Positions 478 to 53,856 are shown, counted from the first letter of the stretch. The stretch: DNA of 53,951 nt from Folioceros fuciformis (GCA_049999805.1 JBNGIO010005069.1:1-53951), one strand, 5' to 3'. Made by a program: numbers and translations. Notes: a model not told the origin generated them from the letters alone.

Positions 478-985
478 AAGCCGATTCTTCCACCGCCAAG
501 CCTGCCCTACCCTGCGCGAGGAGCTGCTAAGCAACAATCATTTATCTTGTCGGGGCTTGTCAAGTTGCTCCATTAGAATCCCAGCGTCAAGGAGACGGTA
601 CTGGTGGTCCCGGGCTATCGCAGATCTGCCCAGGAAGTGGATTTCGTATATGACGTCTTGGACGGAAAACATCTCCACATTGGCATTTTCTTTCTGTTTG
701 TACAGTGATTAGGCTGAGCATTTGACAGTGAGGAGTAGCAAAAAAGCTGGAGAGCCACTGCCCTTGACATGTGCGGACCCACACCATACGAGCGAGAACA
801 CTCTAGGCATGGGATTCTCTGGACGTATCTTATTCTTCTCGTTTGTGTCCTTTTCGTATCATATCATACGACTCGTTCTCGATCTCTCAACTTTTTTGGA
901 CCTAGTGACACACTTCGCATGATCAGACTCACATCGGGCGTCCTGAGACCTCCTGACCTGTGTCATATGTGCAGGTGATAAACAA
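478..985 (+). pseudogene. Degraded fragment of a lineage-B (CYP722-like) cytochrome P450: remnants of the I-helix exon, the AEH exon and the start of the EXXR exon
   Basis: GGCTTGTCAAGTTGCTCCATTAGAATCCCAGCGTCAAGGAG (~554-594) matches 18929-18969 of the intact paralogue. TAGGCTGAGCATTTG..AAGCTGGAGAGCCACTG (~710-760) matches 19105-19155. GTGCAGGTGATAAAC (~969-983) matches 19292-19306. Stops and deletions are present. Confidence 0.8.
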
Positions 986-3900
986 TGCAATTCTAGCCTT
1001 TTCTCTTTGTTTCTCTCTGTCTGGCGCCGCTGGCGGCATTGGCTGGTAAGTAAGGGAGTGTGAGGGCCGAGGCCTGCACACTCAAGGCTATGTGTGCTGC
1101 ACAGCTGGCTTCAAGCATGCCAAGCGGAAGTCCTAACAGCTGGCCAAGCCTATTAATTCTCCTCAAGCTTTTGCTCACCATCTACATACGTAGCTGTGAC
1201 ACAACTATGCCACCTGCAGATACCACATTCCTAAAGCAGGGAACCGAACCGTGTGCTTGACAGCCGCAAAGGGCTGCTGTCCATACAGTACATCCTAGTC
1301 CACAATGCTTCCAAGAATCGGAGACTTCGTTCTCCGGGATTCAGATTTCGGGAAATAACTTTTACTCGGAGGCTTAAAGCCATTTTCTATATTTTTCATT
1401 TCTCAAGACATTTTGCATTGGATCCTTGAAAGCATACAGTCATTTTGGATATAAAAAATAAAGGGATTTGTTTTCCGCGTAGATCCATCAAAACGGAAGT
1501 AACCACTCACAGCCTTACCCCTCATATTATAAAGAGATAGAAAATGATTTTTCCAAGCTATGATTCTTTATACATCACCTTTTAGTGTCCTTTTGGAGGC
1601 TAAAAGTCACCTTTTCAGAAAACAAGTCCTTTTTCATTGAAGTGTGGAGGCTGAGCTATCGGGGACCTGTCACTCAAAAAGAAGAAGATTCCTATTAGCG
1701 CCCACCAAGAATGGATCTCATCATCTGGAGTTGGTACTTAATAACTTGTATCCTAACTTGTTACTTGGCTTCATATTGTTTCATGGTATGCTGAACTTGG
1801 TTTCGAACTTGATATTTTATCATATGATATATCTTATTTTGTACTTGGCTTGATATTGTGTCATGGTAGACCTAACTACATGCTCCGTGGGGCAGCTTCA
1901 TATTGTATTATGGTACACCTAACTACATACTCTAGAGGGCATCTTATAGTCCATTTGGCCTAAGTCATTACAGACAAATCCAATCCCTCTTGCTTGGATG
2001 TAAACATTGACAATAAAAATCATTCTTACACTCATCTTCATAGCATAGCCATCCAACAACATTGTGAAAGTGGTGTTTGGCCGTGGCACGTGCAAGTGTC
2101 ATTCAAGCCTTCCACTTTTATGCCATTTGTACAAACTTGGGACTGATGGAGATGGGAGTGATGACGCTAAGTTTAGGTGCGACCTGATTGTACTGCAATA
2201 CCTTTATCAACCAAACCCCATCCTCACTTTTGTGCTTCTGAGTTGATCAACGGGGTGCCACTACCTCCTCCTGCCTACCGCCGTGCCGAGGAAGGGCCTT
2301 CTGGGAGGATCCAACTCTGAGAGCACTTCATGTGACTGCCCTCTTGCCCCAAACCCTGTTAAATATGCGATGATACGTGGATGGACGATTTTGGTTGTTG
2401 GTCGTGGAGTTCATGCTGTGTGTATGTCGAAGTGGGCTACCGGGATGATTTGGACACGATTTCGTGCAACCATCTGCTACGGATGTATTCTTGCCAAGTC
2501 CGACTGCAGGAAGCCAGGGTTGTGTTCAGCGTAGTGGTCGGACCACAGGAAGCNNNNNNNNNNGTCGGACCACAGGAAGCCAGGGTTGTGTTCAGCGTAG
2601 TGGTCGGACCGTATGCGTTCTTGCCATACAATCTGCACATGTCCACCATGTACACCGAACTTAGGACCTAGGACATTGTATCTTGATATGCGCAGGTGCA
2701 TTGTGAAGCCATACGGGCATGTACGTGTTTACAGCAGCCCTAGTGTAACAGCTTGAGCAAGGGAAGCAAACGTGGAAGTCGGGAGCAGATGCATGCTGGG
2801 TGCTGGCCAGTGTTGCTGGGCTGTAACTTCTAGTTGCTTGGTGGACATGGGCTCTCCAGAATTCCAAAGAATCCCTAGAATGCTCTCTGGAGTAACCTGA
2901 TCCCCAGCTCACGTCTTATTACCACGCATGCAAAGTTTCCAAACTAGAAATAATTCTTGCTACAGCTCGCACAAATCTTGCTAGCACCCGTACAAAGCTT
3001 TCAAAATCTAGGGCTGCCAAGGCTGTTTACTTTAGTTTGTCTCCCATCCTTATGCTATCCTTGAAAGCCATCGCGTCCTTGCATTCCAATTTGGGGAAAG
3101 GTGGCCTGCTCAACCGAACTTGGAAACTTAAATAACCCATATGACTAGCAGATTGTGGGTCACCGTGCTAGCTGTATAAACAACTCTCTGAGTTCCAATG
3201 CAGCATTTAATCACCGAAAACCAAGAGATTTGACCTCAGGGTGGACACGCGATGAGAACATCAAACTGATGTGTGTCGGAAAGGCATTGGATCCGCTCAA
3301 GGCATACGCCGCTCTCTCTCTACCACTCCTTTTCGTTAGCCTCCCCTTAAATAAACCCCATTAGAATTTGTTGGCGAATCGAAAGAGAGCATGCGCTGAC
3401 GACATGCAAGGAGTGGAGAACATCAAATCCTTTTTTAAAGAAGATGCATTCACGATATCACGTCGCAGCACTGCCGTACTCGACTTACAGCGGCATCGCT
3501 TACTCTTCCCGACGGGAGAGCTTTTGGCTCACATGATTATCACTAACCTTATCACTGCATTTCCTACAATCTGCCCCGCTGGAGAAGAGATGGTTGTGCA
3601 TCGAGACCTCGTGCGACCGGTGCGAACAACATGTGAGTGGCGAACCCTCAGGTGACGTTCTGTCTGTTCACGACATAATTCCTTGGCTTTGTCCCAAACG
3701 TCCTAAGTTCTCTGTTATGCGGCTAAGGTCTTCATGTTGACCAAACCACCCCAACCCCCCCCAGGTCAGCACATTCACTCGCTTTGAAAGGATGTGCGCA
3801 TCGGACATGTCCTGGCAGGCAACTGGCCACTGAGCAAGAGATTGTGCTGTTTGCCTATCCGTTTCTAACCACTATGTGCAAGTCGACCGTAAATGTCTAC

Positions 3901-5160: not shown

Positions 5161-7395
5161 ATGGATTGGATTTGGGGAGCGGATGTGTGGTTGGCTCTGT
5201 CCTTCGGTGTTGCATTCTTGTCCCTGGCCTGCATTTTCCTGTACTCGCAATCACTGAGCTCAGCGGCAAGCAGGAAGGGGTCGGCATTGCGTGGCAGATT
5301 CTGGCAGCTGCCTCTTGTGGGCGAGAGCATTGAATTTCTGACCGCGCTCACTCCAGAAGCTTTCTTGCTTCCTCGCATTACGCGGTATGGGATCGTTGCG
5401 AATGAGGTACCTGCGTTAAGTATGAATTTGTAGCTTGCTGAGCCTGCCATGTTCACGCACCTGATTCGGAAGCTGAAAGTGCGCAGGTACGGGCCTGTTT
5501 TCCGAACACACCTGCTTGGGAATCCTACCATTTGTGTCACCGACTCAGACGTAGTCAAATTTGTTACTCAGTCCTCCAAGCAATTCAAATCAGGCCATGG
5601 CAATCAGTCGGCTTCTCGCATCCTTGGGAAGCACGGCATTTCCCATGAGGAGGGGGAGACGCACGCCCTGTATCGTAGGCTGGTGCTGGCTCTTCTAACT
5701 CCCGAGGCTCTCAAAACATTCACCTCCAGGGTTGATGAAACCGCGCAATGGTGCCTGCAATCGCTGGTACCGTTTGAGTGGGATCCGTCTTCGTCTGTGG
5801 TGATCAATGTTTTCAACGAGGCCACAAGGGTAAGTGGTAAACTCAAGAACTGCAGTGCATTGATGGAAGGATTGTGCGGATTTGCCACCATTCCTTTCTT
5901 ACAGGGCGTACGAAGCTGATACGGGTTCTCTTTGGCCTGCGAAGTTCACCTTTGAGGTAGCGTTGCAAGTCACCTGTGACACTCGAACAGATAGAGCTGC
6001 CGCAGAAAGGCTCCATGCATGTTTTTCATTGCTGGCGAAAGGTGTGACCACTATGTTTCCTCTCAACATGCCAGGGACAGCATACAGACGGGCTTTGGAA
6101 GTACATAGCATCCCCAACTTGAACTTCTTTCTCTGTTAGGCTTCAAGCCGTGCGGCATATGGTGTCATTTTCTAATTTTTGCTTTGGATTCTTAGGGACG
6201 ACAACAAGTGGTCAGCTTGTTGAACGACATGATTGAAAAACGACGGGCAGAGGCGCCATCAGCACACGACGAAGACTTGATTGATAGTTTTCTTAAACTG
6301 AAGAACTTGGAGGACCACCAGATAACAGACAACGTCATATTTGTTCTGTTGGCCGGGTACGACGCCGTGGCAATAACGATATGTTGGGTGTTGAACTATC
6401 TTTGTTTGCATCCAGATGTCTTCCAGGCAGTCAAGGTAAGCAAAGTTTTCCATTACGCGTTTATGTGTACTCGCAGTTCCCAGCTCCACTTCCTCTCTGG
6501 ATCATCTGCAGGCCGAGAACGACGCGGTTGCAGGAAGACGCACATGTAAAGATGATGCTATCACGTGGGATGACCTACAGCAGCTGCTCCTGACCCGGCG
6601 TGTAAGTCTAAATGCACTTACGTACGTGGCCCTCTATTTGGGGCGTTGATGAGTGACAAGGTTAGTGCTTTCACAGGTGCTTGACGAGAGCTTGAGACTC
6701 AGTAATGTTGCACCATTTGCCGTGAGGGAGGTAACTGAGGATGTGGAGTACAAGGGTAAGTCATCCAGCTCCAAGGTCTCATGTCATGTGTCTGTTATGG
6801 GCTTACATACATGTATGACAGTCGATATGATGGTGAAGAGTCGATGTTGCAGGGTTGTTTTTCCCAAAAGGTTGGACAGTAATCCCCTGGTTCCGCTCTG
6901 CCCACCTCGACTCCAAAATTTTCCCGGATCCTTACAGATTTGATCCGGACCGGTTCAAGGTAAGATCAACCCCTTGAGCACTAGGCAAACTCTCGGAGAC
7001 CAGTTTGGTTCTTGAACTTGAAAGAGCATCATGTGGGTGGGGTTCCTGGATGCAGACGACGCCCAAGACCAACACGTACACACCTTTTGGAAATGGTTAC
7101 AGAGCATGCCCAGGGCGGGAGCTGGCCAAGCTGGACATTCTGGTATTTCTGCATCGCTTCATACAGTCGTATGAGTAAGTGGCTCGCCAAAGAAAAAGAA
7201 ACTCTTGGTGGCTGGGTTTGTTGGATGCAAGCCAACTCCACTTCTTAGGCTGACCACGCTTTGCCACGTTGTTTGGCTGATGCCTGTAGATTTGAGCCAA
7301 CGGTAGATCTCGAGGTACGGCCCAGAAAGATAGATTGGCTATTACCAAAACCTGCGGGAGGATTACCTCTCCGAATTCGAAGACGGCTGTCGTAA
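5161..7395 (+). CDS. Cytochrome P450, CYP85 clan (lineage A, CYP707/CYP88-like), 9 exons, apparently intact
   Basis: Exons 5161-5384, 5487-5829, 5945-6100, 6196-6435, 6512-6601, 6677-6755, 6853-6959, 7056-7174 and 7290-7395, all GT-AG and in frame. Motifs: N-terminal TM helix, LPLVGE, YGPVFRTHLLG, I-helix AGYDAV, ESLR, FDPDRF and heme FGNGYRACPG. Confidence 0.93.
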
Positions 7396-9653: not shown

Positions 9654-9910
9654 TGTCGGAGTCCGAGATGGGCAGAATTGTTGCACATCGAATTCACGAC
9701 NNNNNNNNNNTGTCGGAGTCCGAGATGGGCAGAATTGTTGCACATCGAATTCACGACGTCGGAGTCCGAGATGGGCAGAATTGTTGCACATCGAATTCAC
9801 GATGTCGGAGTCCGAGCTGGGCAGATTGGTTGCACACCGAATTCACGATGACAAAGAGTGCTCAGGACAGAGAGCGCGGAAAAGTGAATTGTTGCACCGC
9901 GAATTCACGA
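9654..9910. repeat. 46-bp tandem repeat (GTCGGAGTCCGAGATGGGCAGAATTGTTGCACATCGAATTCACGA), about 5 copies, spanning an assembly gap
   Basis: Units start at 9654, 9711, 9757 and 9803, followed by a degenerate copy. There is an N-run at 9701-9710. Confidence 0.9.
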
Positions 9911-12063: not shown

Positions 12064-12508
12064 AAATGGTCGATAGTGCAAGTAAAATGACGAGCCATAG
12101 AATTGTCTATATGCTCTTAACCATTGTGCAAAATACAAGGAACTTCTTTCGCATTCATCATTTCAAACACTTCCATAGCAAGAAGGGATAAGAGGCTGCA
12201 ATAAATACCGCTGCTCGCTTGCATTAAGATTTGCAACGCATTGTGTGTTTTTTTTCGCTATTAGTTGACCCACAATGGTATATTACCTTTCGCTTTATCA
12301 TTCTGGCTTTAGGATACCAGTTTTGTGGTTGTGTTAAGTTCGTTGCTTCATGTAGGAAAATGATTTTTCTCTTTTCATCAGTATCTGCACTTTGGTCTTT
12401 ATAATATTGTATAAAGATGGAGTATAAATATTCATTGCGTGAAAATTGGACAGGCAAATCAAGTTCTTTTGGCTCTCGACATGAGTCGATAGAATAACAC
12501 TCTTCCAA
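12064..12508 (-). pseudogene. SUV3: Fragment of a SUV3-type mitochondrial RNA helicase (N-terminal helicase region)
   Basis: Translation NLTQPQNWYPKARMIKRKVIYHCGSTNS[frameshift]THNALQILMQASSGIYCSLLSLLAMEVFEMMNAKEVPCILHNG*EH...HFTCT matches the SUV3 signature (WxPxARxxKRKIIYHxGPTNSGKT...GxYCSPLRLLAxEV...C.L.TGQE). A frameshift in an A-run and a TAA stop are present. Confidence 0.8.
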
Positions 12509-15500
12509 TGTACTCTTCCAATGTACTCTTCCAATGTACCCAAGTATTTATTTCACGCCAACCATGATCTTCGAATGAACCACTTGCAAAATACTTCCCA
12601 CATACAAAATGCAGTTATATTGAAGTATCCAACTTTCCCTACAAGCACAAACTTTCCAACCATCCCTACAAGAACATAAACAAGGAATGATCATAAATAG
12701 GTCAATGCTTTAAACACATAACAAAATGAGAAGTACGGACAGACACCTTAACATCACGTACAATGCACAAACACGTTTATAGTTTTATAGCCAAACCTAT
12801 AACAGAAGAAGTTGTCTAGGTAACTTTGGAGGGCGCTCATTTTTGTAAGAAGATAATTTTTTTGTGTTTTCTTGCCTTCAACTTTGCATATGCCTCCTTC
12901 GGAGTATATTCTGAAAATTCCATACTTTAAATTTCACACCTAGACGAGTGTATATCTTACACAAAAAGGTTTCCTCAATGGAGTTGTAAGTGTTTCCTTG
13001 ATCAAGTTGAAAGAGTTTACTTAATTAAGGAAACATCTACAAATCTTGATGTATTAGCTCTACTTCCAAACGTTTAAGTTTGCAAAGGTTACGTAGAATC
13101 ACGATAAGAAAGACTCTTCTTTCTTACAAGAATAGATGTAAACTCATACATAGTTAGAAAAATAAAATGACAAATCGATCTATCGCTGAAGGTCAAGGTG
13201 TGGAAGGAGGAAGGGTCAACAAACAAGAGCTTTGCGAACGTAGAATGCAGGTCTTGGTAGTACTATGTTGGATATTGCGAGATTTGCTAGTATTTATACG
13301 CTTGTAGGCACTCCCAAACCTAAACCCTAAAATATATTACTAGCAGTAACTACTTAATTTTTATATTTATTAAGATTTTTTTCTTTGTTTACTAAATATA
13401 TATTTAAATAAGATGAAATAAAAAAAATCTCATACTTTTTTTTTTTTTTTGTATGATGATTTGTGTCATTCACACCCACTAAAAAATGGGGGGGGGGCTT
13501 AGTAATATTTCTTAGCAACATTTTTTAGTAGTTTTGTAACCTCTCTTTTGTGTTTTATTTATTGCTTTATAACACTTCGAGTTTAAACACCAAACCAATG
13601 GAAAGTGTTTGTTGTGCTACAAGAGATCTTGCCTCTCAGCGTCTGAACCTCTCTTCCTAAGACTGTTCAACCCTAGTATAGATTATACATATATAAATAT
13701 ACACTCATGAATTCACCCCTAGTATAGATTATACATATATAAATTTACACTCGTGAATTCACACGCTCGTATGAGGTGGCCAACCTCTACGTTGATATAC
13801 ATATATTTTCTTGCAATAGTGAACACTAATGCGTCAGCAACTAGGAAACACTTCCGGCTGAAAATTACGAGGTCTTGTGAGATATGTAGATCAAATTGTT
13901 TGATAAAAAATATATAATATCTTTCTTTGTGAATGGATGTCTAATTCAGCTTTTCATTCACATGTAATGAGAATAGGGCATTGTGCTTAGTATGCTGGCG
14001 CACAATATCATGCTCATGCAATGGTAGACCGGTGCAATATGGCATAGAGTGCACCGGTAGACCAATAACACAACAATTGATTGGAAAGAAAGGTAGATAC
14101 GCAAGTGTGACGATTTGAGTGAAACCGCTTGAATAGGAAAAAAAAAAAATCAAACACTTAGGACTAAACATGAAATAGGACAAAATGCAAACAATGTGAT
14201 ACCCGCCAGATTACTACGTTCAATGATGGATTTGTATTTATGAACACCCACAAATCCGCATATAATGACACAATACATGATGTTTGCGTTGGTACGCGAC
14301 ACATTTTTTCTGCATGTTAATGCATCGCTGAAAATAAAGGCACATAAATGTGGATACATGACATGAATTTCAAACGTTTAAATCTAGCAAAGCCCGAAAT
14401 GGTGGAATCTGACCGTTTTGATTAGACCTTGTTCATTGATTAAGGTTTTTAGAAGGACGAACCTGAGAAGGTACTTCCTGTAATCCCAATCCTCGTTCGC
14501 AGGTTTTGGTGTAGGTGGAGGGATCACCCTAGCCGGAGGTGGACTAGGGGCCCCCTTCCCTTCTCACAGCCGTGGGTCGTGGGGTGCTGGAGGGACTGAT
14601 GCCCATGCTTCTCATTGTAGTCCAATTGGGTAATCAGTCAGACCAACTCGACTTGCTCCACCTACTCCCAAGTCATAGGAGTTAGGTGAGGTAGTGGTTC
14701 GGCTACCAACAGGTCATTTGGGTCTAGGCTAGTCCACGGAGGTGCGCTTTGAATTTGCACTCCCTTTGGAGCTATTACTGCCACTTGTGAAGTGTTTCTT
14801 TGTTTGGATGGTGGTGCCTTTGGTTGTTGTGGTGACGAGGGCTTGCACTTCCATGCAGGGGGTGGGCTCGCTAGGATGCTAGGGGTGGAGGCCTGTTCTG
14901 TAGGCAGTGTGGGCTCCCTCATAGCTCTACCGACCACTTCCTCTTCCGTTGTCTTTGTTTTCGGTAAGGCAACAAGTCACGTAGGTAGCTAGATTGGTTG
15001 CTTGACCACAAAGACCACCTTCTTGTGGGCCAGTTGGGTGGGTGCTTGGTCGGGGTAGGCTGGCTTTGGAGATTGAAGCCACCGACTGTGAGCTATTCCA
15101 CCTTGGTCGAGGCACTGAAGTGCCCCCAAATGTGGTAAAGGAACAAAAACAACCTAGACAGAGAGGGCTTCTCTTGTCGGAGCCTTCAGGCATTTGCTTG
15201 GATTCGGTTTGCCACCACCTTTTCCCACTTGACTAGGGGGCCCTGCGCAAGTTCGTATCTAAGGAGGAGGACCTTGTTAGCCTCATGGTCTGTCTTTGAG
15301 ACGTAAATTTGCTAGTTGACGATTAGTCTAGCCACCTCCCAATCCATAGGTCACAAATGTTGCGGATTAGCCATCTATTTGTGGCCTTGAAGGCTCCGTC
15401 TAACAATAGGGCTTGGGTCACCTCTTTTACCAACTCCCTGCTCCAATGCGAGTTGAGGTAAAGTCCTCCCTTCTCGGTGGCGGGGTGCCTATAGACTTCC

Positions 15501-17790: not shown

Positions 17791-20050
<2,260 letters not shown>

Positions 20051-40400: not shown

Positions 40401-40588
40401 GAGGAAGTTGTGTATAAGAAGAAAAAGACGGTGAGGTGGAACATAGGCAGTTGATAAAGAGTGGATTGATGAGTTGAAATAGGCTTTTGGTTTTAGAACT
40501 TGACCAATCCACTTTTGTAGGGTGCTGAGAGAAGATAACAGATAGCACTCAGTTTTGATCGGGTTAATTACGCTGTTTGTCTTAGAGG

Positions 40589-40765
40589 TCAGAATCCTCT
40601 TCTGAATTCGGCAACTAGTGTCGAAGAGCCTTATGGATCAGAATCCTCTTCTGGTTTCAGAAGGTGAGAATTCGGCAACTGCTGTCGAAGAGCCTTATGG
40701 GTCAGAATCCTCTTCTGGTTTTAGAAGGTGAGAATTCGGCAACTGCTGTCGAAGAGCCTTATGGG
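40589..40765. repeat. Three-copy tandem repeat (49-64-bp units)
   Basis: TCAGAATCCTCTTCTG...GAATTCGGCAACT..TGTCGAAGAGCCTTATGG at 40589, 40638 and 40702. Confidence 0.85.
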
Positions 40766-43026
40766 ATGTTGACGAAGAGGTCCCAGTGTAGGTTTTGAGC
40801 ACAGTCTGCAGCTGCGACCGAGCCAACTGGAACTCGTCCCGCTGTGCCATGCTCTCCACTGCCGCTTGACGCCTCATGCACACGATAGAGAAATAAAAAC
40901 AGGGTGCTACGAAGGAGCATCATTGTCATCAAAAGGTTACACACAGGCTGCATACTTCGAGGAAAGTAATGAACGTCATGGTTTGAAAGAAAACCATCAC
41001 ACGCAGTCGGAGCGAGTGTAGTTCAGAAAGTATTTGGCAGTCATCCCAGTGCGCCTCCAAAACCCCATGCCCAGAATTTTGTACCCATCCTTGATTGCGT
41101 GCCAAAGTTCCTGTTCCAAGGCCCCTACAAAATGGTAGACACAAGTTCACTCTCATCAGTGACTGCATCGCATACACCAGTATCAGAGGCAACAAACAAT
41201 TACGCAGTTGCTTGCAAGACACATGCCAAGAGCCCAAGCTGCTGTGTTTCTACGACAAAATTGGTTGCCGCCCAGCGCCATCATGTTGTGTTCCAAGTTC
41301 TTCTCCAGCAGGCTCAGCTCCGCAGCCACTTGACAGCTCTGGCTTTTGGAGCCCACAAGTCGTGCGCCAGCAAAACCATCTTGAGCAGGACTTGGGCCGC
41401 AACCATTGCGAGTTTTGCCATCCTGATAGAAATCCCAGCACAACCCTGATGCCACCAAATAGATCCTGAGTTTACGCATCCTTGCAACCCGAAACTCAGT
41501 CTCAACCAGCACACCCACTCTCCTCTTGGACACGAAAACCGCCAGGAAGTCAGCCGACTGCATCTGCACCGGGCAGCAGATTAGGTGTCTTGTCATATCT
41601 GCACCGCTTTCTTTTTAGATCGGTTCCCCCACGATGAGAAGTGCACAACTTTGAAAAGCTTATTTGAAACCTGGACTTCAAACCGACGGGTTTGAAATCC
41701 TTCCATCCCGGGTATGGAAAGCCAGGTATGGAAATGCAGGTACAGAGAACGGTTGCAAAAATCTGAGTATGCAACGGGAACCACAAACTAATGTTGCTGC
41801 TATGTCGTGTATGTCGATATGAAGCCACGATACATCGGGTTGCGTGGTACATTGGGTTGCGCATCTGCACGGGTCTACTGACCGTATTTGCCTTAATGGC
41901 CATCACGTATCGATGGGAAAGCCCTTGGACATGGCCCCTAGCCCCAGCCTGGTACGGTGTGTGTGGCCAAAAGTCTGGCAGGGATGCAAGCCCAAAAGTT
42001 TGGCAGCACGTCCAAGAACATCATGAAACCTTTAGTTTTCCTTTTTGCACCACAAATTAAATCAAGATGTCAAGGTGCATGGCATGGTGCAAGACAGAGG
42101 AAGGACAACTAACTCTACTGTAGTGGAAGCATGTTCAACAACATCATGACACCTTTAATTTTCCTTTTTACACCTGGTGACAAATCAAATCAAAATGTCA
42201 TGTTGCATGGTGACAACAAAAGGCAATGACTCTGGCATACCAAAGGCCGGGTGTCGCAAAATTTTTCTGAACACTTCACAAATGACTCAAGCTTGTGGTA
42301 CCTACCACGAACACTTGCCGAACCTCACTGGGGCTGCAGGAGATGGTGAAAAAATTACGTTTGGGGTTCGGTCTCGGGCGTAGCCTGAGGCTTCTTGGTT
42401 TGGTAACATGGCCGGGGCTGACACTCTATTGGTTAGTGGCCGCTATGCGGCACTGACAGCTTTGGGGGAGGGCCTAGAGTGACCACAACGGTATATACCC
42501 CATGAGAAAATATTATAGAAAAAGCATCCCCCCTTTCTCATAGGTGACCTCCAAGAAAGGTGGCTCCCCTTTGTTCCTTACAATGGAAGCAAGTTCAAGG
42601 TTGTTCAAAATTCATGAAACCTTTTTTTTCCGCTTTCTGCTGCACCACTCGGCATAGTCGAAATGTTGAGGCGCAATATGGTGTACAACAGAGCAAGGAC
42701 AAAAGGTATGTTTCGGATGTCTCACGTAGGACATGAGCAAGCTTAGCTTCCTTTCTTATTCTATGCTAGTTGTACCCACCTCCAGGTGCTAGTTGTACCC
42801 ACCTCCAGCCAATAAAATCTCCCACGACAACCATATGTATTACATGATTGTACACCGCCGAACATGAATGCTGTAGCACTAGGCCTGCAAGGGAGACCCG
42901 GGACCAGGGACCAGGGACCAGACACATATGGAAGGCTCCAGCCTTGTGCATGTCACCTTTTGCTGAAGCCTAATAAATAATTACTGAATCGCTACTTTTG
43001 GAGACCTAGCCGGAGCTATGTATGTA

Positions 43027-44846
43027 CAGTCAAACCCCTCTAATTGGGACCCCTATAAATGGTAACCCCCTTTAAATGGGACGTCCGGGCTTACTCCCTT
43101 GAATGTGCTACATGCTAAATGGGAAACCCCTCTAATTTGTAAATGGGAACCCGAACATTCAATGCAAGTACACCTCTATAGAAGGAAAAGGAAAAATACA
43201 TATTAAAAAACTGAGATCGAAGAGTAGCCAGGTTCTTCTGCTTAAAGGACCTTTACTTTAGGTACAGCCCTAAATAAAGGCGGCCCCGTGGGCACTATGT
43301 TCGTAACCTGTCGCTTCTTCAGACTTACCATAGAGCACTCCTATTGCAGTAAACAAAAAATTGAGGAAATCATCTTATTGAGATTAAATAATGAGTTATT
43401 GAGATTATGTCAAGTTAAAGGCTATCGAGATTATATCATAAAACATAGACAGTCATCGAGATTGGGCCTATATATGTAGTAGTTCTGTACACAATGCTTT
43501 GAGATCAAAAGCATTGTTCCTAGTACATAAGTTGTTTCATTGTACAAGTTGTCTTATGGTGTTGTAAGTTGTCTTGCTGTGAGATATTTTGTATGTGTTC
43601 CTTACCCATTCTCTTTGACGTGTAGGAACAATGCCGCCCAAGCCACCGCACAAGCATGCTACCCTAACAAAGCAACAAAAGAAAGAGGTTTGCGAATATT
43701 ATGTTCAACACTCTTGCACACTTAAGGAGTTGACTAGATGGACAACATAGAAGTTTTCAATAGCTGCTTGTAAAAGTGCATTGTCTAGGATTGTGAAAGA
43801 TAAAGACAAATGGTTGGACCCTGCCATTGGTCCAATAATTAATATGGTAAGAATGAGGGATAGACTAGTCGTATGCCCACAGGTTGACCATGGAGTATAC
43901 ATTTGGGCTCTTGCAATCCAAGCTCAAGGTGCCACAATCTCAAATGACTTGCTTCGTGAGTGCATCAAGTTGTATCCTGACTATTGTGACTATCAAGCAA
44001 TGGTTATGTTGGTAAAAGCTTGGACTTCGTTTGTGAGTCCTCATACCATACGCAATTGTTGGAGGCACAACACTTTGGATGCAAAATTGCGTGCACAAGA
44101 TGCTTGGTTCCGTGAGGCTTTGGATCTAAACAGCGCACCATATGATCCAGAGGATCCATTGTCGGATCCTCAAAATCTCCCTAATTCGTTGGAAATGTAG
44201 GTAGAAGAACTACAACAGTCCATGCGAAGCTTAGCATTATTAACATCTAAGGATATGATAGGAATTGTTGATGTTGGATATCCAACGATGACAGTTGAAG
44301 AGTATCTGAACTTTGAGGAGGATGAAATATTGAAGACTGCGTATATTCCTAGAGAGAACGAAATATGACAAGCATTAATCCCTCCGCCTGTCAATGAGAA
44401 GGGTGAGGAGAATGATACAGCGTCAATGGAGACCATAGTGCCAAGACCGTGTACGACAAAGGATGCTGTAGATAATCCTATGAGGATAGCGAAGATGTTT
44501 TTGGAAGGAATGCCACATAACTAACACTCTTGATGCTTTGAAGTTGCATTCTCAATTGGAAAAACATGTTGCTAGTCATTGGATGAAAGCAACTCAACAT
44601 CAATAGGATTGATGATTATTTTAACCCAGCAAACTAGAATTAGGTTGGCAGCTATGTAGTACGAGGGAGGATTTTGGATTTTTTGGAAGCTTTTAAGCTC
44701 TTTCTTTCGAATTTTTGATTTAAATGATTTTTTGATTTTTTTTTTAAATATTTTTATTTTCAAGAAAGATGAAAATGCCCGAGAACCCCTCTAAATGGGA
44801 CAATTTTTACTACTCCCAATTGTTCCCAATTAGTGGGGTCTGACTA
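43027..44846 (+). mobile_element. Internally deleted pogo/Tigger-like (Tc1-mariner superfamily) DNA transposon
   Basis: 23-bp TIRs (CAGTCAAACCCCTCTAATTGGGA, 20/23 match) flanked by TA. Subterminal CCCCT.TAAATGG repeats. N-terminal HTH-like LTKQQKKEVCEY..SALSRIVK from 43631, and the pogo-type C-terminal KAW..VS..TIRNCWRH. The catalytic DDD core is absent. Confidence 0.85.
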
Positions 44847-44948
44847 TATACCCTCCTTAGAGTGAGTGCACGATCACTTTATTCCAAGGTTTACGCCGAG
44901 CCCACACGTATTTTATGCAACTACACCTCGCTTGCCCTGTCAGGCTAG

Positions 44949-46724
44949 CTAGTACTCCCCAACAGCCTCGATGCGTACGGGGACACCAGTTTTGGGGGCG
45001 ATGCCAGACCCGAAACGTTGAGGCCACTGTCTGGCTTATCTACTGTCCACCTGTTTCATGACATCCAATGTCGGCACCCCAGGTCGTACATGTCGATACG
45101 GGCACGTGCGCTTTGTATGGACATACGAGCTCTTGCAGAAGAATTATGGGGACACACCTGAATTTGAGCATCACGTGATGCAACATCACTTTCATGTTCA
45201 TTAGTGCCAGCTCCTTCCCAAGTCACAACCTGCTTCCACCTCCCCATGCCGTCAGGGAGAGGGGCTTCGGTGGCCCCTGTTGTTAGCATCGGAAACTGGT
45301 GCGTTAGAAGGTAACTGCCAAGATGATGTTCGTTGTCTAATGATTCGGGACGTATCTGTAACGATTCTGGTGTTCAATTGAAGAATCATATTCTCACATC
45401 GAAGCGAGAGGGATTAAATATCTCCGGGTCTTCGAAGATATCTGGACTATGATGCAAGTTTTGAACACAAACAGCCTCAAACACAACGTTCCAGCCCTTA
45501 GGAATGTGGTATCCTGCAGGTGGCACAAGTAGAGTTTCAGGTAGTGGCAAAGCTTCGAAAAACTCTGCAGAGCGTTGGTCAAGCACCGTGACCCAATGCT
45601 TGGTAGGACTCCCCGCTTGGAGTAGAGAAGGAAAGTAAAAGGTTTCCAATCCCAGGAGCAGCTAGCATACATACCGTTGAATGTAAAATCCTCCTTCACC
45701 TGTCGATGCAACCAGAAACCAATAAACGACACTCGGAGTGTCTCGTTGATCACCAGCGCATATAGCATGCACACATGAGGCAAGACAAATGGATCTTAGG
45801 TTACGCCAGATCAAGATTGCAGTGAGTATTGGGCCACCACTAGGTTGGAGAATGTTCAGGGATCCGAGTCTCACTTCAAGGTGTAGGCCATCGGTTGGCC
45901 AAGATCCGCCCACACCAGTGCCTATCCAGCTTGTTTGTTTCGTTTGAGATCCACATGCTCAGCCTACCGTTAGAGCGACAGAAAAACCAAACAACAAGGT
46001 GGGGTCGCTTGGACGCAATCTGTTCCAAACCAATTTCGTTTCCTATGGGCGACGTCTGTGATACATCGCCGGGACTATGGCTCACCAGTAGCTTCTCCTT
46101 GGCGAGGAATCGGGGTCGACTGCCTTCGTCATTTCAGTCAGCAGGTCGCTAAGAACAATTTTTCCGCTCCTTCTCAGCGCGAATTCGGTGCCGAACATTT
46201 TGCCCAGTTCCTTTCTGGCCTGCACGCCCAGTCCACTTGCCTTGTTAGATACATTGTCGCACATCACGAGTCTTGGGAGAACACGGAAATGTGTGCTCCA
46301 AATTGGGCCGAGAATAAATTGGTACCTACATGGCCTCGTGAAAGGCGAATCCAGGAAGATTGATGGGCACCCTGACCAAGCTGCTACTCACTTTGTCCGT
46401 GAGCTCCAAGCTCCTGCCCCGCAGTGCACCAGGACCCCAGCTCAGCATTAACCTGACGATCACGTGGTACGCGAACTTCGCACTGCGGTGAGCAACTAGA
46501 AGTTAGCAATAATCACGAGCTCTGACTCCGCAAACGTTGTGGCCCATTCCTGGTGCACGCACCTTGGCCACGTGGTGTCTCATGACGGGGCCGTCGCCCT
46601 GTTTCCAGGACCTGAGGGCCTCCAGAGCCGATTTCTCAGACACCGGCAGATACTTCTTAGTGCTTTCGCCGATGAAACTCTGGTTGAGAATTTTGCGATA
46701 GAACTTGTGGGTGGGGCCGTGCAC
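44949..46724 (-). pseudogene. Lineage-B cytochrome P450 pseudogene, 5'-truncated
   Basis: Collinear with the neighbouring intact genes. The heme Cys codon is mutated to TGA (WGGGSRL*LG, 45223-45225). The I-helix segment is deleted near 46100, the last exon is frameshifted, and the N-terminal part is missing beyond 46724. Confidence 0.92.
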
Positions 46725-47429
46725 AGTGAATCATTCGGGCCTTCCTCTCAATCTAGCTCCCTCCTCGATGCATATGGAATTCGGGTTAAGAGTGTGGGCT
46801 ACAAAGATGGCCAGGCTCCTGGAAATGGAGGAGCTGCAATGGTTTTGTGCCTAGACTGGACGCAACAGTTACGTATCTGCTGTAGGTATGGCTGAATATT
46901 CGGAACTTTGGCCACAAATCCCTTCCTCGACCTTCCTTCGACGGATTTTGCTCTGCGAAACGGCACCACAGATCTTCTGGGAGCTCCTGCGCCTCACTAA
47001 CGTGCTGTTCTTAGCCAGCTTAGTGTCTTCACCATTAGTCTGAATAGATTGTGGTCCGGGGTCAAGTTTGGCTTGTTTGCTAAAGCTGTGGGGACAGCTT
47101 GGAGGTAATGGAGTCGGGGCCAAGGTGAGAACACATAAACCTGCTGTCCTGGGGTCAGGGCCAAGGTGAGAGCACATGAATCTGCGGGCTTCCATCTTCT
47201 GCTTGTTACTGGAGAGCTGCATTGCCCTGGGGTTGGTGCCAGGGGCTCTACTGCATCGGCCGTCGTGATGTGGGGCTCAGCTTCTGCTCCCTTCAAATTC
47301 GGGAGCGGGATGGGTTGGTGCCAGGGGATCTACTGCATTAGCCGTCATATGATGTGGGGCTAAGCTCTTCTGCTCCCTTCACATGTGGGAGCGGGAGTGG
47401 CCTCCATACATACCTTCACATTTGGGAAT

Positions 47430-47712
47430 GGGAGAATCCAATGCAAATTTCAAATTTCTGTAGCTGCGAGATGCCATACATAAGGATCCGAGTGCAAATT
47501 TCAGTAACTGAGAGGCCTGTATGGAGGATCCGATTGCAAATTTCAGTATCTGCGGGGAGGATCCGAGTGCAACATTTAGTAGCCGCAATTTCAGTAGCTG
47601 CGAGGAGGATCCAAGTGTAATTTTTAGTAGCTCCGAGGCCCTTTAGTCCGCAATTGCAGTAGCTGCGAAGAGGATCCAAGTGTAATTTTTAGTAGCTCCG
47701 AGGCTCTTTAGT
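47430..47712. repeat. Degenerate ~35-65-bp tandem repeat (GGATCCGAGTGCAAATTTCAGTAGCTGCG) in the DNA that replaces the 5' end of the P450 pseudogene
   Basis: GATCC..TGCAAATTTCAGTA cores recur about six times. Confidence 0.75.
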
Positions 47713-48518
47713 TTAGGATTGTGGCATCCAGTAGTGCATATCAATAAGGCAAGGGAATCACGTTATGTTGGCATAGGTGCATAGGATGTGTACATTGGGG
47801 CAATAATGGATCTAGAGGGCATACAATGTTCCACACTCCCAGAACAAGATGGCACACAAGTCTACACACCAAGTGTAGACTCACACAACCTTGGTAGGCA
47901 AGATCTTTATAAGGCGCTTTTCTTCCTTGCCCCTTCCCTAGTTGACTTCATGGTGGTCGTTCTGCAGAAAAATTAATTTTAGGTACCTTTCATATTAACT
48001 ACTTTAGGGTACTCTTCATTCATTTATTTAGATACGTTATAATAAATTACTTCCACCAGTGTATAATGACATGCTGGCTGGAGGACTGAGCATTAGTATC
48101 ACATTGAGAGGCTGCTTCTTGTGGGCTACTGGAGGATGTTGAGAAACTGCTTTTTGTGCCTCTTTGAATGCTGATAGCCCATGGCTGTAAAGAATACTGG
48201 CTCACACTCTTGACAGGGAAAGTTTGCCTTCAGATCATAGGCTAGGTTTTTCTTCAACACCGCAGGTGTGTGACGTTCAATCACCTCTAGCGGGAACTTC
48301 ATTTGTTGTTTTAGTGAACCTCAAGCGGGACTCAATACAATTGCTAAGTACGCTCAGTATTAAACGCTCATAATTGTTAAATTGTTTTCTTACTCTAAAC
48401 ATAAAATACGCTCCCGACCGTCTGTGGGATGGATGTTCGATGAACATCAAATGTAAACCGCTTCACATGGTATCCACATCAAGGCCGTGTGCTATCCTGC
48501 ATTAGATTTGTCGGCACA

Positions 48519-50768
48519 CTAATAGTCTTCAACCGCCTCGATCCTTATGGGGACGCCGTTGTTGGGGCATGGCAGACCCGAAATGTCGAGGCCGGTGTCT
48601 GGCTTATCCACTGTCCACCTGTTTCACCATCAGATCGGCACCTATCGGTGAGCCAAGATTCTGAAGCAATATTTGGGGATGCGGATTGTGAAATTACTGC
48701 ACCAATATGTGAAAGGATGAGGACGGACTTGAACTTGAGCATCAGGTGATGCAACATCACTTTCATGTCCATCAGTGCTAGCTCCTTCCCAAGGCACAAT
48801 CTACTTCCACCTCCAAACGCTAGCAGGGTGTAAGGCTTCGGGGGCACCTGTTGGTAAGTAGCCACGGAACGCAGAGTGTCCACAAGATCACTACCAAAGA
48901 TGTCGTTCGACGTCTCTGAGTCGGAGCTGGCTGTGAAAAAATTAATGCCGAATTCAAGCATCAGGCGACTTACATCGAAGCGAGAGGGATTGAACTTCTC
49001 CGGCTCTTGGAAGACTTCTGGACTATGGTGCAAGTCATGGGTGACATGCACAAGGCTCCAGCCTTTAGGAATGTGGTATCCTGCAGGTGGAACATTCATG
49101 TGTGTCAGGCACTTAGAAAGCTTCAGAAAAATTGCGGCAATCAAGCACTAGTTTGTGACCCTGTTAGGAATCCCTGCTGGGAGTAGGGAATGAATCTGAA
49201 CGGGTTGGTGAGGCCATCCACAGCATTCATACCATTGAATGTGAAGTCCACCTTCACCTGTCGATTCCACCAGAAAGCGATAGAAGAAACTCGGAGGGCC
49301 TCGTTGATCACCTGAGGCACACGAGACAGAGACGGGAGGGTCTTAGGAGGCCAGATTTACGTGAGTAGCTGTGTAGCACGTGGGTGAAGATTGTTGAGGC
49401 ATCCGAGACTCACCTTCGATGTGTAGGCCATAGGTTGGCCCAGATCCGCCCATGTCAGGGCCTCTCCAGCATGTTTGTCTCTTCTCAATGCCAAGTGCTC
49501 CGCCTGAAGTTCAAACAGACAAAACGGAACCTTGAGGTGAGATTAGCTTCGATCCAAGATATCCCAAAGGAATGTCGTTTCCTATGGCTGAGCTATGTGA
49601 CAGCCCGAGGCCAGGCTCACCAGCAACTTCTGCTTGACGCTGGGATTCTCATGCAGCAACTTGACGAGCCAAGTGAGTGTGTTGGTGGTGGTCTCAAAGC
49701 CAGCAACCATCAGGGTGATAAGATTGTCCTTCAGCTGCTCGTCCTCCAGGGCAGGCTGGTCGCTGGAAGAATCGGGGTCAACAGCGTTCATCATCTCGCT
49801 AAGCAGGTCATTGCGAACAATTTTTTCGGTCCTTCTCAGCGAGATTTCGACGTCGAAAATTTTGCCCAGCTCTTTTCTTGCCTGCAAGCCCAGACCGCTC
49901 GCGCTGTTAGATTTATTGCACTCATGGCAAGGAGAAGTCGAACACTGCGCTACAATTACGCCTGGGATGGATTGTCACCTGCATCGCTTTGTGAAAGGAG
50001 AATCCAGGAAGATTGATGGGCACAGTGAGCAAGTTGTTTCTAACTATTTCGATGAGCTCACGACCCCTGTCACGCACAGGACCAGGACCCCAGCTCAGCA
50101 CCAGTCCCACGATCACATGGTAAGCAAACTGCGCACCGTCAGCAACTCCTCATTACAATGACAAGCTCACAAACATTGCACGTTGCGCACCCACGGGAAC
50201 AATGCGCCAATTCTGGTGCACTCACCTTGGCCATGTCGTGCCTGACAACCGGGACGTCGCCCCGCTTCCAGGAACTGAGCGTTTCCAGAGCTGCTAGCTC
50301 CACCACCGGAAGATACTTCTTGATTCTTTCGCCCATAAAGGCATCGTTCAGCATTCTGCGATAGAGCTTGTGCTTGGGGCCGTGCACATTGATCATGGAC
50401 TCCTCGCCTACTAGCTTCCTCCCGGGGAGCATCTGGTGCGCGTTCACCAGCTTGTCCTCCCCAGCGACTAAGAGTTTGGCCGCCTCGGCGCCCTTGAAAA
50501 ACACATACGGACTGCCCAACAGGTGCGATTTGAAGACGTCGCCATGCTGGCGGAAGCGCTTTGTTGTGAATGTATCCAGATCCCCGGTCTTGAAGTAGCC
50601 CATCAGCTCCATCGTCTCTCCCAGCAGCGGGAAGCCCATAGCCCCCGGCAGCTGCTTCGACCCCCTGGGCGCCCATATACCCCTCCGCTCCCAATACCTC
50701 CACACTGACCAGCTCACAGCAAGCACCGCAAGAGCCACCCCCGTCTCCACAGCCAGCGTCACGTCCAT
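48519..50768 (-). CDS. Cytochrome P450, CYP85 clan (lineage B, CYP722-like), 8 exons, 482 aa, intact
   Basis: Exons 50768-50226, 50128-49979, 49881-49621, 49503-49414, 49311-49233, 49080-48974, 48847-48729 and 48618-48519 (1449 nt). Motifs AGFETTT, EALR, PEKFNPSRF and heme FGGGSRLCLG. Confidence 0.95.
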
Positions 50769-51527
50769 GGCAGCCCCGCGATTCTTCCTTGGGACGGGAT
50801 GGAATCTTCAGGATGCCATCCTGTAGCGATCTCTCCAGCTTTACACAGATGACTTCACAGGGTGAAGTGTGTAGTCCATCGAAACTAGACGCTGCAGCTT
50901 TTTCCTCCGAAGACCTTTTCTGCGTACGTACGACGCCTCTGAAACACGTGATAGTACTGTAGATGAGACTGCCAGAGGGATCCAGAAGGCTCATTGTGGC
51001 TGCTGCAACTTTGCTAAAACTGGAATGAATTGATTGGCAGACTCAGCCAAAGTCCCTGACCTCATGGTTCGCCTTTTGTGTTAAAATACAGTATTGACGC
51101 GTTACGTTTGTCTGTCGATACCTCGTCCGACCCGCACATATCCTTCAATTGGTGGATAAGATTGTCAAAAGGTTTGATTACAGCAAGTCCTTACGTATCA
51201 CGTCAGTGGTGAGAGCTGCTACATGGATTTAATGCAAAGGATTTAACGTACGGGATACATCCGATACATATGTATACTGTACACAAGCAGACATATATGT
51301 AGGTTGATTGCTCAGAATGACACCTACTGTAGTACTGATCCGTCCGAAGGGGGGGGCATAGTGGAGTTTAGATGTGGACCCCCCCCCAGAGTTTCAACTG
51401 TTATTAGGATACGGGAGAAGATGAGCGCTCCTCCCGCCATCTGTCGTCCCCATCGCGGGGGTTGGGAAGGCGCCCACACGTCTGGAACCCCAGGTTCTCT
51501 TTTCATAGCTAGGTTGGCAGACTTGGC

Positions 51528-53856
51528 CTAATACTCTGCTTGAACAGCCTCGATCCTTATGGGCACACCGTTCTTAGGGAATGGCAGCCCCGAGACTTGA
51601 AGGCCAGTGTCTGGCTCATGTACTGTCCACCTGTTTCAACGCCATGTCGGCACCCAGTTGGTTAGCCAAGAAGCATGTAAGTGGGGACGTGGATTGGAGC
51701 ACATGACTTTTGAGCGATTGCAGAAGCTAGAACTACAGCGACGCACCGGAATGTGAGCATCATGTGATGCAACATCACTTTCATGTTCATTAGTGCCAGC
51801 TCCTTCCCAAGGCACAATCGGCTTCCACCTCCCCACACCAACCAGGTGAAAGCCTTCGGTGAAACCTGTTAGTACCATCGGAACGCAAGATGTCACAGCA
51901 GAGCTTCCAACATGTTGTTCGTTGTCTATGATTAGGAGATGTGTGTGACAATTGTAGAGGTGAATCAAAGAAACAAACTCTTACAGCGAAGCGAGAGGGA
52001 TTGAACTTCTCTGGGTCTTGGAAGATTTCGGGACTATGGTGCAAGGTCTGAGTGTCAAGCACAATGTTCCAGCCTTTCGGAATGTGGTATCCTGCAAGTA
52101 GCACATGAATATCAGGTAGTGACAGTCAAAGCGTCGAATTCGGGAATATCAGTGTGAGAGAGGAAATCAAGCACTACTTCTGTGACCCATGTAAGGACTC
52201 CCCACTTGGAGCAAGAGAAGGAATCTGAACGGTTGCCAATGCCAGGTGCAGCATACTATGTCATACCATTGAACGTAAAGTCCTCCTTCACCTGTCGATG
52301 CAGCCAGAAAGCGATAGACGACACTCGCATTGCCTCGTTGATCACCTACATGCACACATGAGACAAGACAGGTGGATGTTAGCTCACTCCAGATTCCAGT
52401 GAGTACACGTGGGCCACAACTAGGTTGAAAAATGTTAAGAGATCCGAGTTTCACTTTCAAGGTGTAGGCCATAGGTTCGCCGAGGTCTGCCCATATCAGT
52501 GCTTCTCCGGCTTGTTTGTTTCTTCTCACAGCCACATGCTCAACCTGCAGTCACAAACATGAAAACCAAACGACAAGGTGGGGCTCGCTTGGATCCAAGC
52601 TGTTCCGAACCAATTTCGTTTCCTATGGACGACGTCCTAAAGTTTGATAATCCCCGGGACCATGGCTCACCAGTAGCTTCTCCTTGACGCTGGGATTCTC
52701 ATGCAGCAGCTTGGCAAGCCAGCTGAATGTGATGGTGGTGGTATCATACCCAGCGATAATCACGGTGAGCACAGTGTCCCCTAGCTGCTCGTCGTTCAGG
52801 GCTGGCTTGTTGCTGGGAGAATCGGGGTCGACTGCCTTCATCATTTCGTTCAGCAGGTCGACGCGAACAACTTTTCCGCTCCTTCTCAGCGCGATTTCAG
52901 TGTCGAACATTTTGAGCAGCTCCTTTCTTGCCTGCACGCCCAGTCCACTTGCCTTGTTAGAGCTATTGCGGCCCATCGCAAGCCTTGGGCGAAGTTGGAC
53001 ACCTGTGCTCCAATTAATTTGGGCTTGGAATGAATTCGAACCTGCATGGCCTTGTGAAAGGCGAATCCAGGTAGATTTACAGGCACCGAGATCAAGCTGG
53101 ACGTCACTATTTTGCTGAGCTCCAAGCTCCTGTCACGCACTGGACCAGGACCCCAGCTCAGCACCAATCCGACGATCACGTTATAAGCGAACTGCGCACC
53201 GTGAGCAATTAACTACCAGTTAGCAAACATCATAAGATCTGCACAAGCATTGCAACTAGTTGCACACAAACGGTAAGAGTAGCCTTTGCCGTTCCTGGTG
53301 CACGCACCTTGGCCATCTCATGTTTCATGACGAGGACGTCGCCCTGCTTCCAGGAACTGAGGGTCTCGAGAGCCAACCGCTCCGACACCGGCAGATACTT
53401 CCTAATGCTTTCGCCCATGAAGCTTTCGTTGAGAATTTTGCGATAGAGCTTGTGTCTGGGGCCGTGCACATTGAGGAGCGACTCCTCGCCAAACAGTTGC
53501 CTCGCAGGAAGGAACTGGTGCGACTTTACCAGCTTGTGCTCATTTGTGATCATGAACTTGGCCGCCTCGATGCCTCTAAGAAACACATACGGGTTCCCCA
53601 ACGCGTGCGACTTGAACACATCGCCAAACTTGCGAAAGCGCTTGGCCGTGAATGTCACAGGATCCCCAATCTTGAAGTAGCGCAGCAGCTCCATCGTCTC
53701 CCCCAGCAGGGGCAAGCCCATGGTCCCCGGCACCTGCTTCGAGCCCTTGGGCGCCCACATACCCCTCCGCTCCCAGTACCTCCACATTGGCCAGGCCACA
53801 GCCAGCACCGCAATCGCAAGCGCCACTCCAGTCTCCACACCCCATGTCACTTCCAT
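51528..53856 (-). CDS. Cytochrome P450, CYP85 clan (lineage B, CYP722-like), 8 exons, 485 aa, intact
   Basis: Exons 53856-53308, 53191-53042, 52931-52671, 52544-52455, 52345-52267, 52091-51985, 51865-51747 and 51630-51528 (1458 nt). Motifs AGYDTTT, EAMR, PEKFNPSRF and heme WGGGSRLCLG. Confidence 0.95.

Follow-up and report, generated by a model that had tools for sequence, protein, structure and literature searches.

In Ginkgo biloba, the ginkgolide gene cluster brings together the diterpene synthase GbLPS and the cytochromes P450 CYP7005C1, CYP7005C2, CYP7005C3, CYP867K1 and CYP867E38 (PMC9436924). CYP7005 is described as a clan-85 family from ferns and Ginkgo (bioRxiv 10.1101/2021.03.23.436569, PMC9436924), whose A and C subfamilies share about 40% (PMC9436924). 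Within it, CYP7005C1 and CYP7005C3 are reported to be clustered with levopimaradiene synthase and to oxidise its product (PMC9436924, PMC13623857), and CYP7005C3 is also credited with oxidising abietane-type diterpenes (PMC13623857). Formally, a plant cluster is defined as three or more non-homologous enzyme genes close together and serving a common pathway, and the available text of the same source names one bryophyte diterpenoid cluster (PMC9945934); a Marchantia monoterpene cluster is reported in a 2026 preprint. Terpenoid clusters outside seed plants are rarely published. Here we analyse JBNGIO010005069.1:1-53951, a stretch of 53,951 nucleotides (henceforth the window), whose 54 kb hold a single diterpene synthase (TPS) with three domains and, in two lineages named A and B, seven P450 loci. 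With a probability of roughly 0.55, we read the locus as a true but eroding TPS-P450 cluster for a specialised labdane-related diterpenoid, probably from a non-seed land plant.

A preliminary description of the window had proposed this gene content, and Pfam, self-BLAST and tBLASTn bear it out. In a first Pfam scan of six-frame open reading frames (ORFs), 13 of 25 matched p450 (PF00067), one matched Terpene_synth and two matched MULE/SWIM domains. The second scan covered a further 100 ORFs of at least 70 aa and recovered Copia gag, integrase and RVT_2 domains and one Suv3 helicase fragment, together with one sub-threshold Terpene_synth_C match and three sub-threshold matches without biological meaning. 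Among these 125 ORFs we found no enzyme family beyond TPS and P450, which upholds the earlier statement that every recognisable gene, transposable elements and the helicase fragment aside, is one or the other. By the same scans the 54-kb window contains no third enzyme class, and no class I partner synthase was found within it. Rfam at gathering thresholds and tRNA scans of the window returned no matches.

The seven P450 loci were resolved by self-BLAST, tBLASTn and a custom P450 hidden Markov model (HMM) trained on database P450s together with the window's four intact genes (model length 487). Gene models, GT-AG introns and the HMM sustain the division into four intact genes (A1, A3, A4 and B1) and three broken ones (psiA2, psiB2 and psiA5). 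Spliceosomal GT-AG introns and the presence of Copia and MULE elements indicate that the window is nuclear plant DNA; its GC content ranges from 0.35 to 0.56 and the introns of its genes from 75 to 175 bp. Contigs from three sequencing runs were compared over 34000-53951. The DNA runs X1 and X2 come from one sample, possibly the assembly's source, and are not independent of the assembly. Run X3 comes from another sample and study and was classed as RNA by its spliced contigs. A further run, X6, yielded nothing. Going beyond the preliminary description, the analysis adds the pseudogene status of the TPS, its class II reading, the placement of the P450s by CYP7005 and CYP780, and the transcription of A3 and A4.

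The diterpene synthase and its lesions

The TPS lies on the minus strand in two parts. Its 5' part (34225-36800) codes for the gamma and beta domains and for where the alpha domain begins; the 3' part (24213-24721), recognised by tBLASTn, encodes the end of the alpha domain and closes with the natural TAG stop at 24213-24215. The gene matches Pfam Terpene_synth with an E value of 2.7e-23. A Marchantia protein of 881 aa, labelled 'diterpene synthase-like protein', aligns over its residues 109-653 to positions 36692-34734, with identity near 50% in the N-terminal portion; the search that retrieved it took in only proteins of at least 875 aa. The 3' part (24731-24156) aligns to residues 719-880 of the same protein (tBLASTn E 0.001 in the window and 2e-4 in the sub-region); its matches to Terpene_synth_C (E 1.5e-4) and PF19086 (E 1.1e-4) fall short of the curated cut-offs. 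Among solved structures the best match is Arabidopsis ent-CPS (AtCPS, PDB 3pya; E 1.7e-93, residues 56-366), followed by abietadiene synthase and rice syn-CPS, and the protein atlas matches are ent-CPS-like clusters from Streptophyta.

The class II motif DxDD is intact, reading DLDD (35768-35757) where AtCPS has an aligned DIDD and the Marchantia protein DVDD. Together with the closest likeness to ent-CPS, this fits the labdane-related chemistry that had been proposed. Class I synthases carry the consensus motifs DDxxD and (N/D)Dxx(S/T)xxxE; at the corresponding positions the TPS reads DDYTN (34796-34782) and, after splicing, NDLRSYQRG, both of them non-canonical. A bifunctional class II/I enzyme would show both class I motifs besides DxDD, so that of the earlier 'bifunctional-type' label the three-domain architecture stands and the class I motifs do not. 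In the alignment to AtCPS, the TPS also reads LAS for LHS and PNL for PNV, keeping the Asn of the latter, and so departs from the base dyad (LHS plus PNV) of hormone-type ent-CPSs. Both LHS and PNV are stated to be conserved in all hormone CPSs, and AtCPS H263A to make ent-labda-13-en-8-ol diphosphate (ent-LPP) (PMC11795633). Taken at face value, the intact DxDD, LAS in place of LHS and the non-canonical class I motifs would mark the TPS as a specialised class II cyclase whose bifunctionality is not demonstrable. Because its base motif is LAS rather than the hormone-type LHS, its product was probably not plain ent-copalyl diphosphate (ent-CPP).

The first exon of the TPS (36800-35703) begins with an ATG at 36800 and is open over 366 aa. 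The 5' half of the gene is thus a single 1.1-kb exon (35703-36800), covering approximately residues 109-440 of the Marchantia protein. In a 47%-identical TPS on a metagenome contig (L001 9894-11805), the same region is split into at least five exons. This suggests partial intron loss in the window TPS, the 3' half of which still has introns.

The assembled gene is broken in several places. Two in-frame TAG stops, at 35552-35554 and 35447-35449, fall within ungapped homology to the Marchantia protein, and an acceptor site for the first intron was not found in any homologous frame. DNA contigs from X1 (34242-36105) and X2 (34242-36017) run continuously over both stops with no differing letter listed there; the X2 contig has no differing letters at all and the X1 contig 12, all near the contig end. 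Since these contigs come from what may be the assembly's source sample, they exclude a consensus error at the stops and leave room for a private allele. Both premature stops are TAG, as is the natural stop. Rescue of the TAG codons by organellar U-to-C editing was considered and rejected, the gene being nuclear by its GT-AG introns and Copia insertion.

The second type of lesion is a 9.5-kb nest of Copia long terminal repeat (LTR) retrotransposons in an alpha-domain exon (24722-34224, plus strand), identified by its LTRs and Pfam domains. Copia gag, integrase and RVT_2 domains each occur twice within it. The outer LTRs (24722-24902 and 34044-34224) are 98.3% identical, differing at 3 of 181 positions, and the inner pair (24975-25184 and 29546-29770) is 91% identical. 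A polypurine tract precedes the Copia 3' LTR, and copies of a GTGTC repeat stand near the two insertion ends (24715-24719 and 34226-34230). Removing the insert together with one GTGTC copy yields an open frame, ...EAMGDTIPTWTEF..., that matches a conserved region of the alpha domain. Because its removal restores this frame, the element sits in an exon and not in an intron. The outer LTRs are more alike than the inner ones, opposite to the expectation for a simple nested insertion, and a 130-bp LTR-like piece lies inverted at 28100-28230, within the inner element.

With two TAG stops and an exonic Copia insertion, the TPS has no intact frame, and in the assembled locus it is a pseudogene. Because the TPS is dead, the locus as assembled cannot make its own scaffold. 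By inference, the gene died long after the P450 arrays formed, since its lesions are few, exon 1 is open and the outer LTRs differ at only 3 of 181 positions, against a synonymous divergence (dS) of about 0.5 among the P450s.

Two lineages of P450 genes

Lineage A comprises three intact genes and two broken ones; between copies, DNA identity is 72-81%, introns counted. A3 (50768-48519, minus strand) is intact and expressed, with 8 exons encoding 482 aa: a single 1703-nt X3 RNA contig matches it with 0 mismatches and skips all seven of its GT-AG introns (97-152 bp). Its ORF carries the motifs AGFETTT, ExxR, PSRF and FGGGSRLCLG. A4 (53856-51528, minus strand; 8 exons, 485 aa) is likewise intact and expressed. 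For this gene six of the seven introns are listed in X3 RNA contigs and the seventh could be traced in the overhanging end of one contig; the frame is open and the heme motif reads WGGGSRLCLG. In both genes the RNA contigs match the window exactly. A1 (17791-20050, plus strand; 8 exons, 486 aa) was modelled by projecting the introns of A3, which gave seven introns, all GT-AG, and an open 486-aa frame. No X3 RNA contigs fall on the TPS (34666-36663) or on psiA2 (45322-47985), which is not evidence of silence.

Protein identity among A1, A3 and A4 is 72-75%. By the Nei-Gojobori method, the ratio of non-synonymous to synonymous divergence (dN/dS) among them is 0.24-0.36 at dS 0.42-0.56, and on account of this ratio we conclude that the three genes have been under purifying selection since duplication. 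P450s share a heme-binding motif FxxGxRxCxG, the ExxR and PERF-type motifs and an acid-alcohol pair in the I-helix. All four intact window genes carry the heme-binding, ExxR, PERF-type and I-helix motifs in open frames, with one deviation each in A4 and B1. In A4 (51747-51865) and psiA2 (~45151-45222) the first Phe of the heme signature is replaced by Trp, and A1 and A3 have Phe; A4 is expressed despite the Trp.

The two remaining lineage-A copies are degraded. psiA2 (44943-46760, minus strand), recognised by tBLASTn and HMM, is without the first ~127 codons, has lost ~127 bp of exon 3 (the I-helix) to a deletion, contains frameshifts and shows a stop in place of the heme cysteine codon (WGGGSRL*LG). 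psiA5 (423-778, plus strand) is a remnant detected by tBLASTn that retains only parts of the I-helix exon 3 and of exon 4. Three co-linear segments align to A3 residues 248-276, 300-318 and 319-338 (joint E 1.6e-6), and a 110-bp gap coincides with the exon 3/4 boundary. The custom P450 HMM gives nothing below E 1 at 423-778.

Lineage B is represented by B1 and psiB2, arranged tail to tail. B1 (5161-7395, plus strand) is an intact, CYP780-like P450 with 9 exons encoding 487 aa in a hand-built model. Its eight introns are all GT-AG (75-115 bp), there is no internal stop, and it shows ExxR, a PERF-like motif, the heme motif FGNGYRACPG and the I-helix motif AGYDAVA. In exon 4 (6196-6435), Ala occupies the conserved I-helix Thr position; psiB2 (ASHDTVA) and Selaginella CYP780A8 (GGHDTTA) keep Thr. 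psiB2 (9442-7533, minus strand; tBLASTn, HMM) is truncated at its 3' end. Exons 1-7 are open, the K-helix exon included, and neither the heme-binding nor the C-terminal exon is present; HMM coverage is limited to positions 5-403 of 487, and tBLASTn matches to B1 and database P450 queries end at ~7533. From the end of exon 7 to the B1 stop codon there are 140 bp. The stretch 'FGNSQSIFLG' was considered as a decayed psiB2 heme motif and rejected, as it is the antisense of the last B1 exon.

Lineage A and B1 share just 27-28% protein identity, and B has nine exons where A has eight, so the claim that the lineages differ in sequence and intron structure holds. Each of the seven lineage-A introns has its counterpart in B1, whose one additional intron lies near the 5' end.

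We placed the P450s by structure, by named relatives and by phylogeny. A3 exon 1 finds its best solved-structure matches in CYP120A1, taxadiene 5-alpha-hydroxylase (CYP725A4) and CYP90B1 (11 matches, E<=0.01). For B1 exon 2, a CYP152-type fatty-acid peroxygenase ranks ahead of CYP90B1, CYP120A1 and taxadiene 5-alpha-hydroxylase (15 matches; a weaker signal). A HMMER search with A3 exon 1 returned 851 proteins at E<=0.001, and the sole match below 1e-30 was a 313-aa fragment at 48% identity. Names were checked for 30 of the 150 listed representatives of this search; among these 30, the nearest named proteins were CYP7005C, CYP780, CYP716, CYP815, CYP90A and proteins source-named 'ABA 8'-hydroxylase'. 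Over full-length alignments, the best named lineage-A relative is Ginkgo CYP7005C3 (A1 39.6%, A3 37.0%, A4 37.7%), and the best named B1 relative is Selaginella CYP780A8 (35.8%). Word-indexed protein searches gave no matches for A4 exon 1 or psiB2 exon 1, and the 158 pattern matches of a lineage-A exon 1 alignment to metagenomes included no relative.

A phylogeny of the P450s, which had been proposed as a check, narrowed down their position. The careful maximum-likelihood tree has 39 rows, made up of the 4 window models and 35 database proteins selected from the A3 exon 1 match list and from named cluster members. In it, A1, A3 and A4 group with two transcriptome proteins (100/99), and this group is sister to one further transcriptome protein plus Ginkgo CYP7005C2 and CYP7005C3, in an eight-row clade that is again at 100/99. 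The sister group of B1, whose branch is long (1.28), consists of CYP780A8 and the CYP780B1 cluster (98/96). A quick tree with 69 rows recovered these groupings too. Family membership is drawn at ~40% identity or more, together with monophyly: lineage A lies at 37.0-39.6% to CYP7005C3 within its 100/99 clade, in a tree with no named fern CYP7005A, and B1 at 35.8% to CYP780A8, beside that protein and the CYP780B1 cluster. Solved-structure matches, named relatives and both trees thus point to the CYP85 clan for all four intact P450s, as first assigned. The further guess of a non-seed plant is plausible and not proven: it accords with the short introns (75-175 bp) and with closest relatives from a lycophyte, a liverwort, Ginkgo and transcriptome contigs.

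Cluster, chance neighbourhood or null allele

Two observations favour a true, if eroding, cluster. The TPS, lineage A and lineage B are three founders of separate origin within 54 kb, and lineage A belongs to the only clade with characterised members that are clustered with a diterpene synthase and act on its product. Under this reading, the three-domain class II cyclase would have protonated geranylgeranyl diphosphate (GGPP) at DxDD, and the neighbouring CYP85-clan P450s, namely the CYP7005-clade tandem array (A) and the CYP780-like pair (B), would then have oxidised the diterpene skeleton. We infer that the P450s once acted on the product of this TPS, and the identity of that product likewise. 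Given a dead TPS, selection on A1, A3 and A4, and spliced transcripts of A3 and A4, the surviving P450s would now have to use a substrate made elsewhere, by a paralogous synthase or another pathway. As a whole, the locus looks like a partly eroded cluster for defence-type diterpenoids. Of the diterpenoid cluster first proposed, what stands is a diterpene synthase physically clustered with two CYP85-clan families; the dead TPS and the missing class I partner speak against the rest.

Several further points weigh against a cluster. A biochemical or co-expression tie of the P450s to this TPS is so far hypothetical, and conserved, expressed P450s beside a dead TPS also fit a history in which the P450s at no time needed it. 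By itself, a class II cyclase would not supply an olefin of the kind that P450s usually use, and the window holds no class I synthase. The LAS, PNL and class I readings come from a pseudogene and may reflect decay after gene death. At just 37-40% identity to CYP7005C, a substrate class need not persist. The only TPS relative found elsewhere, in a metagenome scan whose 3 loci amount to one AT-rich plant contig, is 47% identical and has many introns; no P450 lies within 10 kb on either side of it, and it is too distant for a test of synteny. Finally, the locus falls short of the formal definition in terms of three enzyme classes (PMC9945934), because it has only TPS and P450 genes and its P450 lineages are homologous and of one clan.

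The alternative that survives best, which we nonetheless consider unlikely, is that two CYP85-clan arrays with unrelated substrates grew by local duplication beside a TPS that happened to be there and is now dead. P450 arrays commonly grow in this way, and the persistence and expression of the P450s despite the dead TPS, in 54 kb with neither a class I partner nor a third enzyme class, is what such a history would leave. Other substrate classes are also possible, as many of the nearest relatives are source-named 'ABA 8'-hydroxylase', CYP90A or CYP716. No mention of CYP780 was found in the literature search, which thus offers no record on the nearest relatives of lineage B. Chance neighbourhood has to account, on the other hand, for three founders of separate origin within 54 kb, and for a lineage A that falls in a clade whose characterised members cluster with a diterpene synthase and act on its product.

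A second alternative, distinctly less probable in our view, is that the TPS is knocked out in the particular haplotype or accession that was assembled, with intact alleles segregating in the species and the cluster working at the population level. The lesions are few and young-looking, with two stops in ~800 codons and an open exon 1 (366 aa), and the 98.3% identity of the outer LTRs contrasts with the dS of 0.42-0.56 between P450 paralogues. Presence/absence variation is on record for a rice diterpenoid cluster (PMC9945934). Set against this, both DNA runs derive from one sample, possibly the assembly source, and represent a single genotype; the acceptor of the first TPS intron also looks lost, which hints at decay beyond one event. 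That the TPS lesions or the juxtaposition of the genes arose by misassembly is very improbable: the window does contain three 10-N runs, and short-read contigs are fragmented across its repeat block, but X1 and X2 contigs, though not independent of the assembly, are continuous over 34242-36105 and 34242-36017, RNA contigs match A3 and A4 exactly, and the LTR junctions carry a target-site repeat.

We therefore return to a true but eroding cluster. Read in this way, the locus illustrates cluster decay in which the scaffold gene dies first and some tailoring genes stay selected. It also adds three intact genes related to a clade in which the only enzymes characterised so far catalyse unusual oxidations of diterpenes; for two of the three, expression is shown. 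For pathway discovery its value is limited, and the scaffold enzyme is to be sought elsewhere in the genome or in a relative.

Remaining content and comparison with known systems

Outside the TPS and P450 genes, the window is occupied mainly by repeats and fragments. A Suv3-type helicase fragment (12227-12547, minus strand; Pfam DEXQc_Suv3 E 5.4e-8) covers only the first 29 profile positions and is not part of the cluster. An AT-rich block at 10-14 kb (GC 0.35-0.39) bears tandem arrays with periods of 43, 64/201 and 27 bp. At 38773-40289 (plus strand) lies a MULE/SWIM transposase with Pfam MULE, ZSWIM RNaseH-like and SWIM matches, inside a repeat-rich block (~38000-44655) over which summed DNA contig depth is 45-1330, compared with ~11-12 across the TPS and the P450s. 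The RNA contigs that align at 40.7-41.5 kb carry several mismatches. The region 38000-44655 is a high-copy repeat block, and its copies in other places appear to be transcribed. A 308-aa open frame at 22465-23391 (plus strand), with a Cys/His-rich start and a 27-bp tandem repeat at 22773-22888, has no Pfam match.

At 3772-3864 (plus strand) there is a weak heme-like stretch, ..HRTCPGRQLA.., with a best E of 0.002 against database P450 heme regions. Its independent E in the custom HMM is 0.6, too weak for it to count as an eighth P450; the stretch could be what is left of one more, heavily decayed P450, or a chance match. The three N runs mentioned above are each exactly 10 N long (2554-2563, 9701-9710 and 37437-37446). 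An identical peptide is repeated on either side of each of the first two, and the third lies inside a 25-bp tandem array; these runs may be collapsed repeats or masked bases.

Among described systems, the Ginkgo ginkgolide cluster (PMC9436924) is the one nearest to the window. In both, one diterpene synthase is flanked by P450s of two families, and in both there is a CYP7005-clade tandem array of the CYP85 clan, lineage A and CYP7005C joining at 100/99. As the Ginkgo source describes that cluster, interspersed pseudogenes and Copia-type elements are a further common feature. The two differ in the synthase: GbLPS is active and a bifunctional class II/I enzyme, whereas the window TPS is dead, has non-canonical class I motifs and matches ent-CPS best. 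The second P450 family is CYP867 in Ginkgo and CYP780-like here, lineage A is only 37-40% identical to CYP7005C, and the window, at 54 kb, is far more compact. As a long shot, a labdane-type diterpene synthase joined to a CYP7005-clade tandem array might be an old genomic module common to this plant and Ginkgo, whether inherited or put together more than once from these two families. If inherited, the module would date to the common ancestor of vascular or land plants. The locus would then be a decaying copy of it, and the expressed P450s could show the ancestral chemistry of the clade from which the C-C cleaving ginkgolide enzymes later arose.

The momilactone clusters of rice and the moss Calohypnum plumiforme resemble the window in placing a scaffold synthase beside tailoring P450s. 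In the rice and Calohypnum clusters the P450s come from the CYP71 clan, CYP99, CYP76 and further families, and dehydrogenases are part of the momilactone clusters. The window has CYP85-clan P450s only and a broken synthase, whereas the rice and Calohypnum synthases are intact and their products known. The rice chromosome 7 cluster is like the window in combining one TPS with locally duplicated P450s, there a tandem CYP71Z array, and it too falls outside the formal definition (PMC9945934). Lastly, the hormone-type AtCPS and the window TPS have DxDD and the Asn of PNV in common. The window TPS is unlike AtCPS in that the His of LHS is replaced by Ala, the gene is disrupted and its 5' half is one exon.

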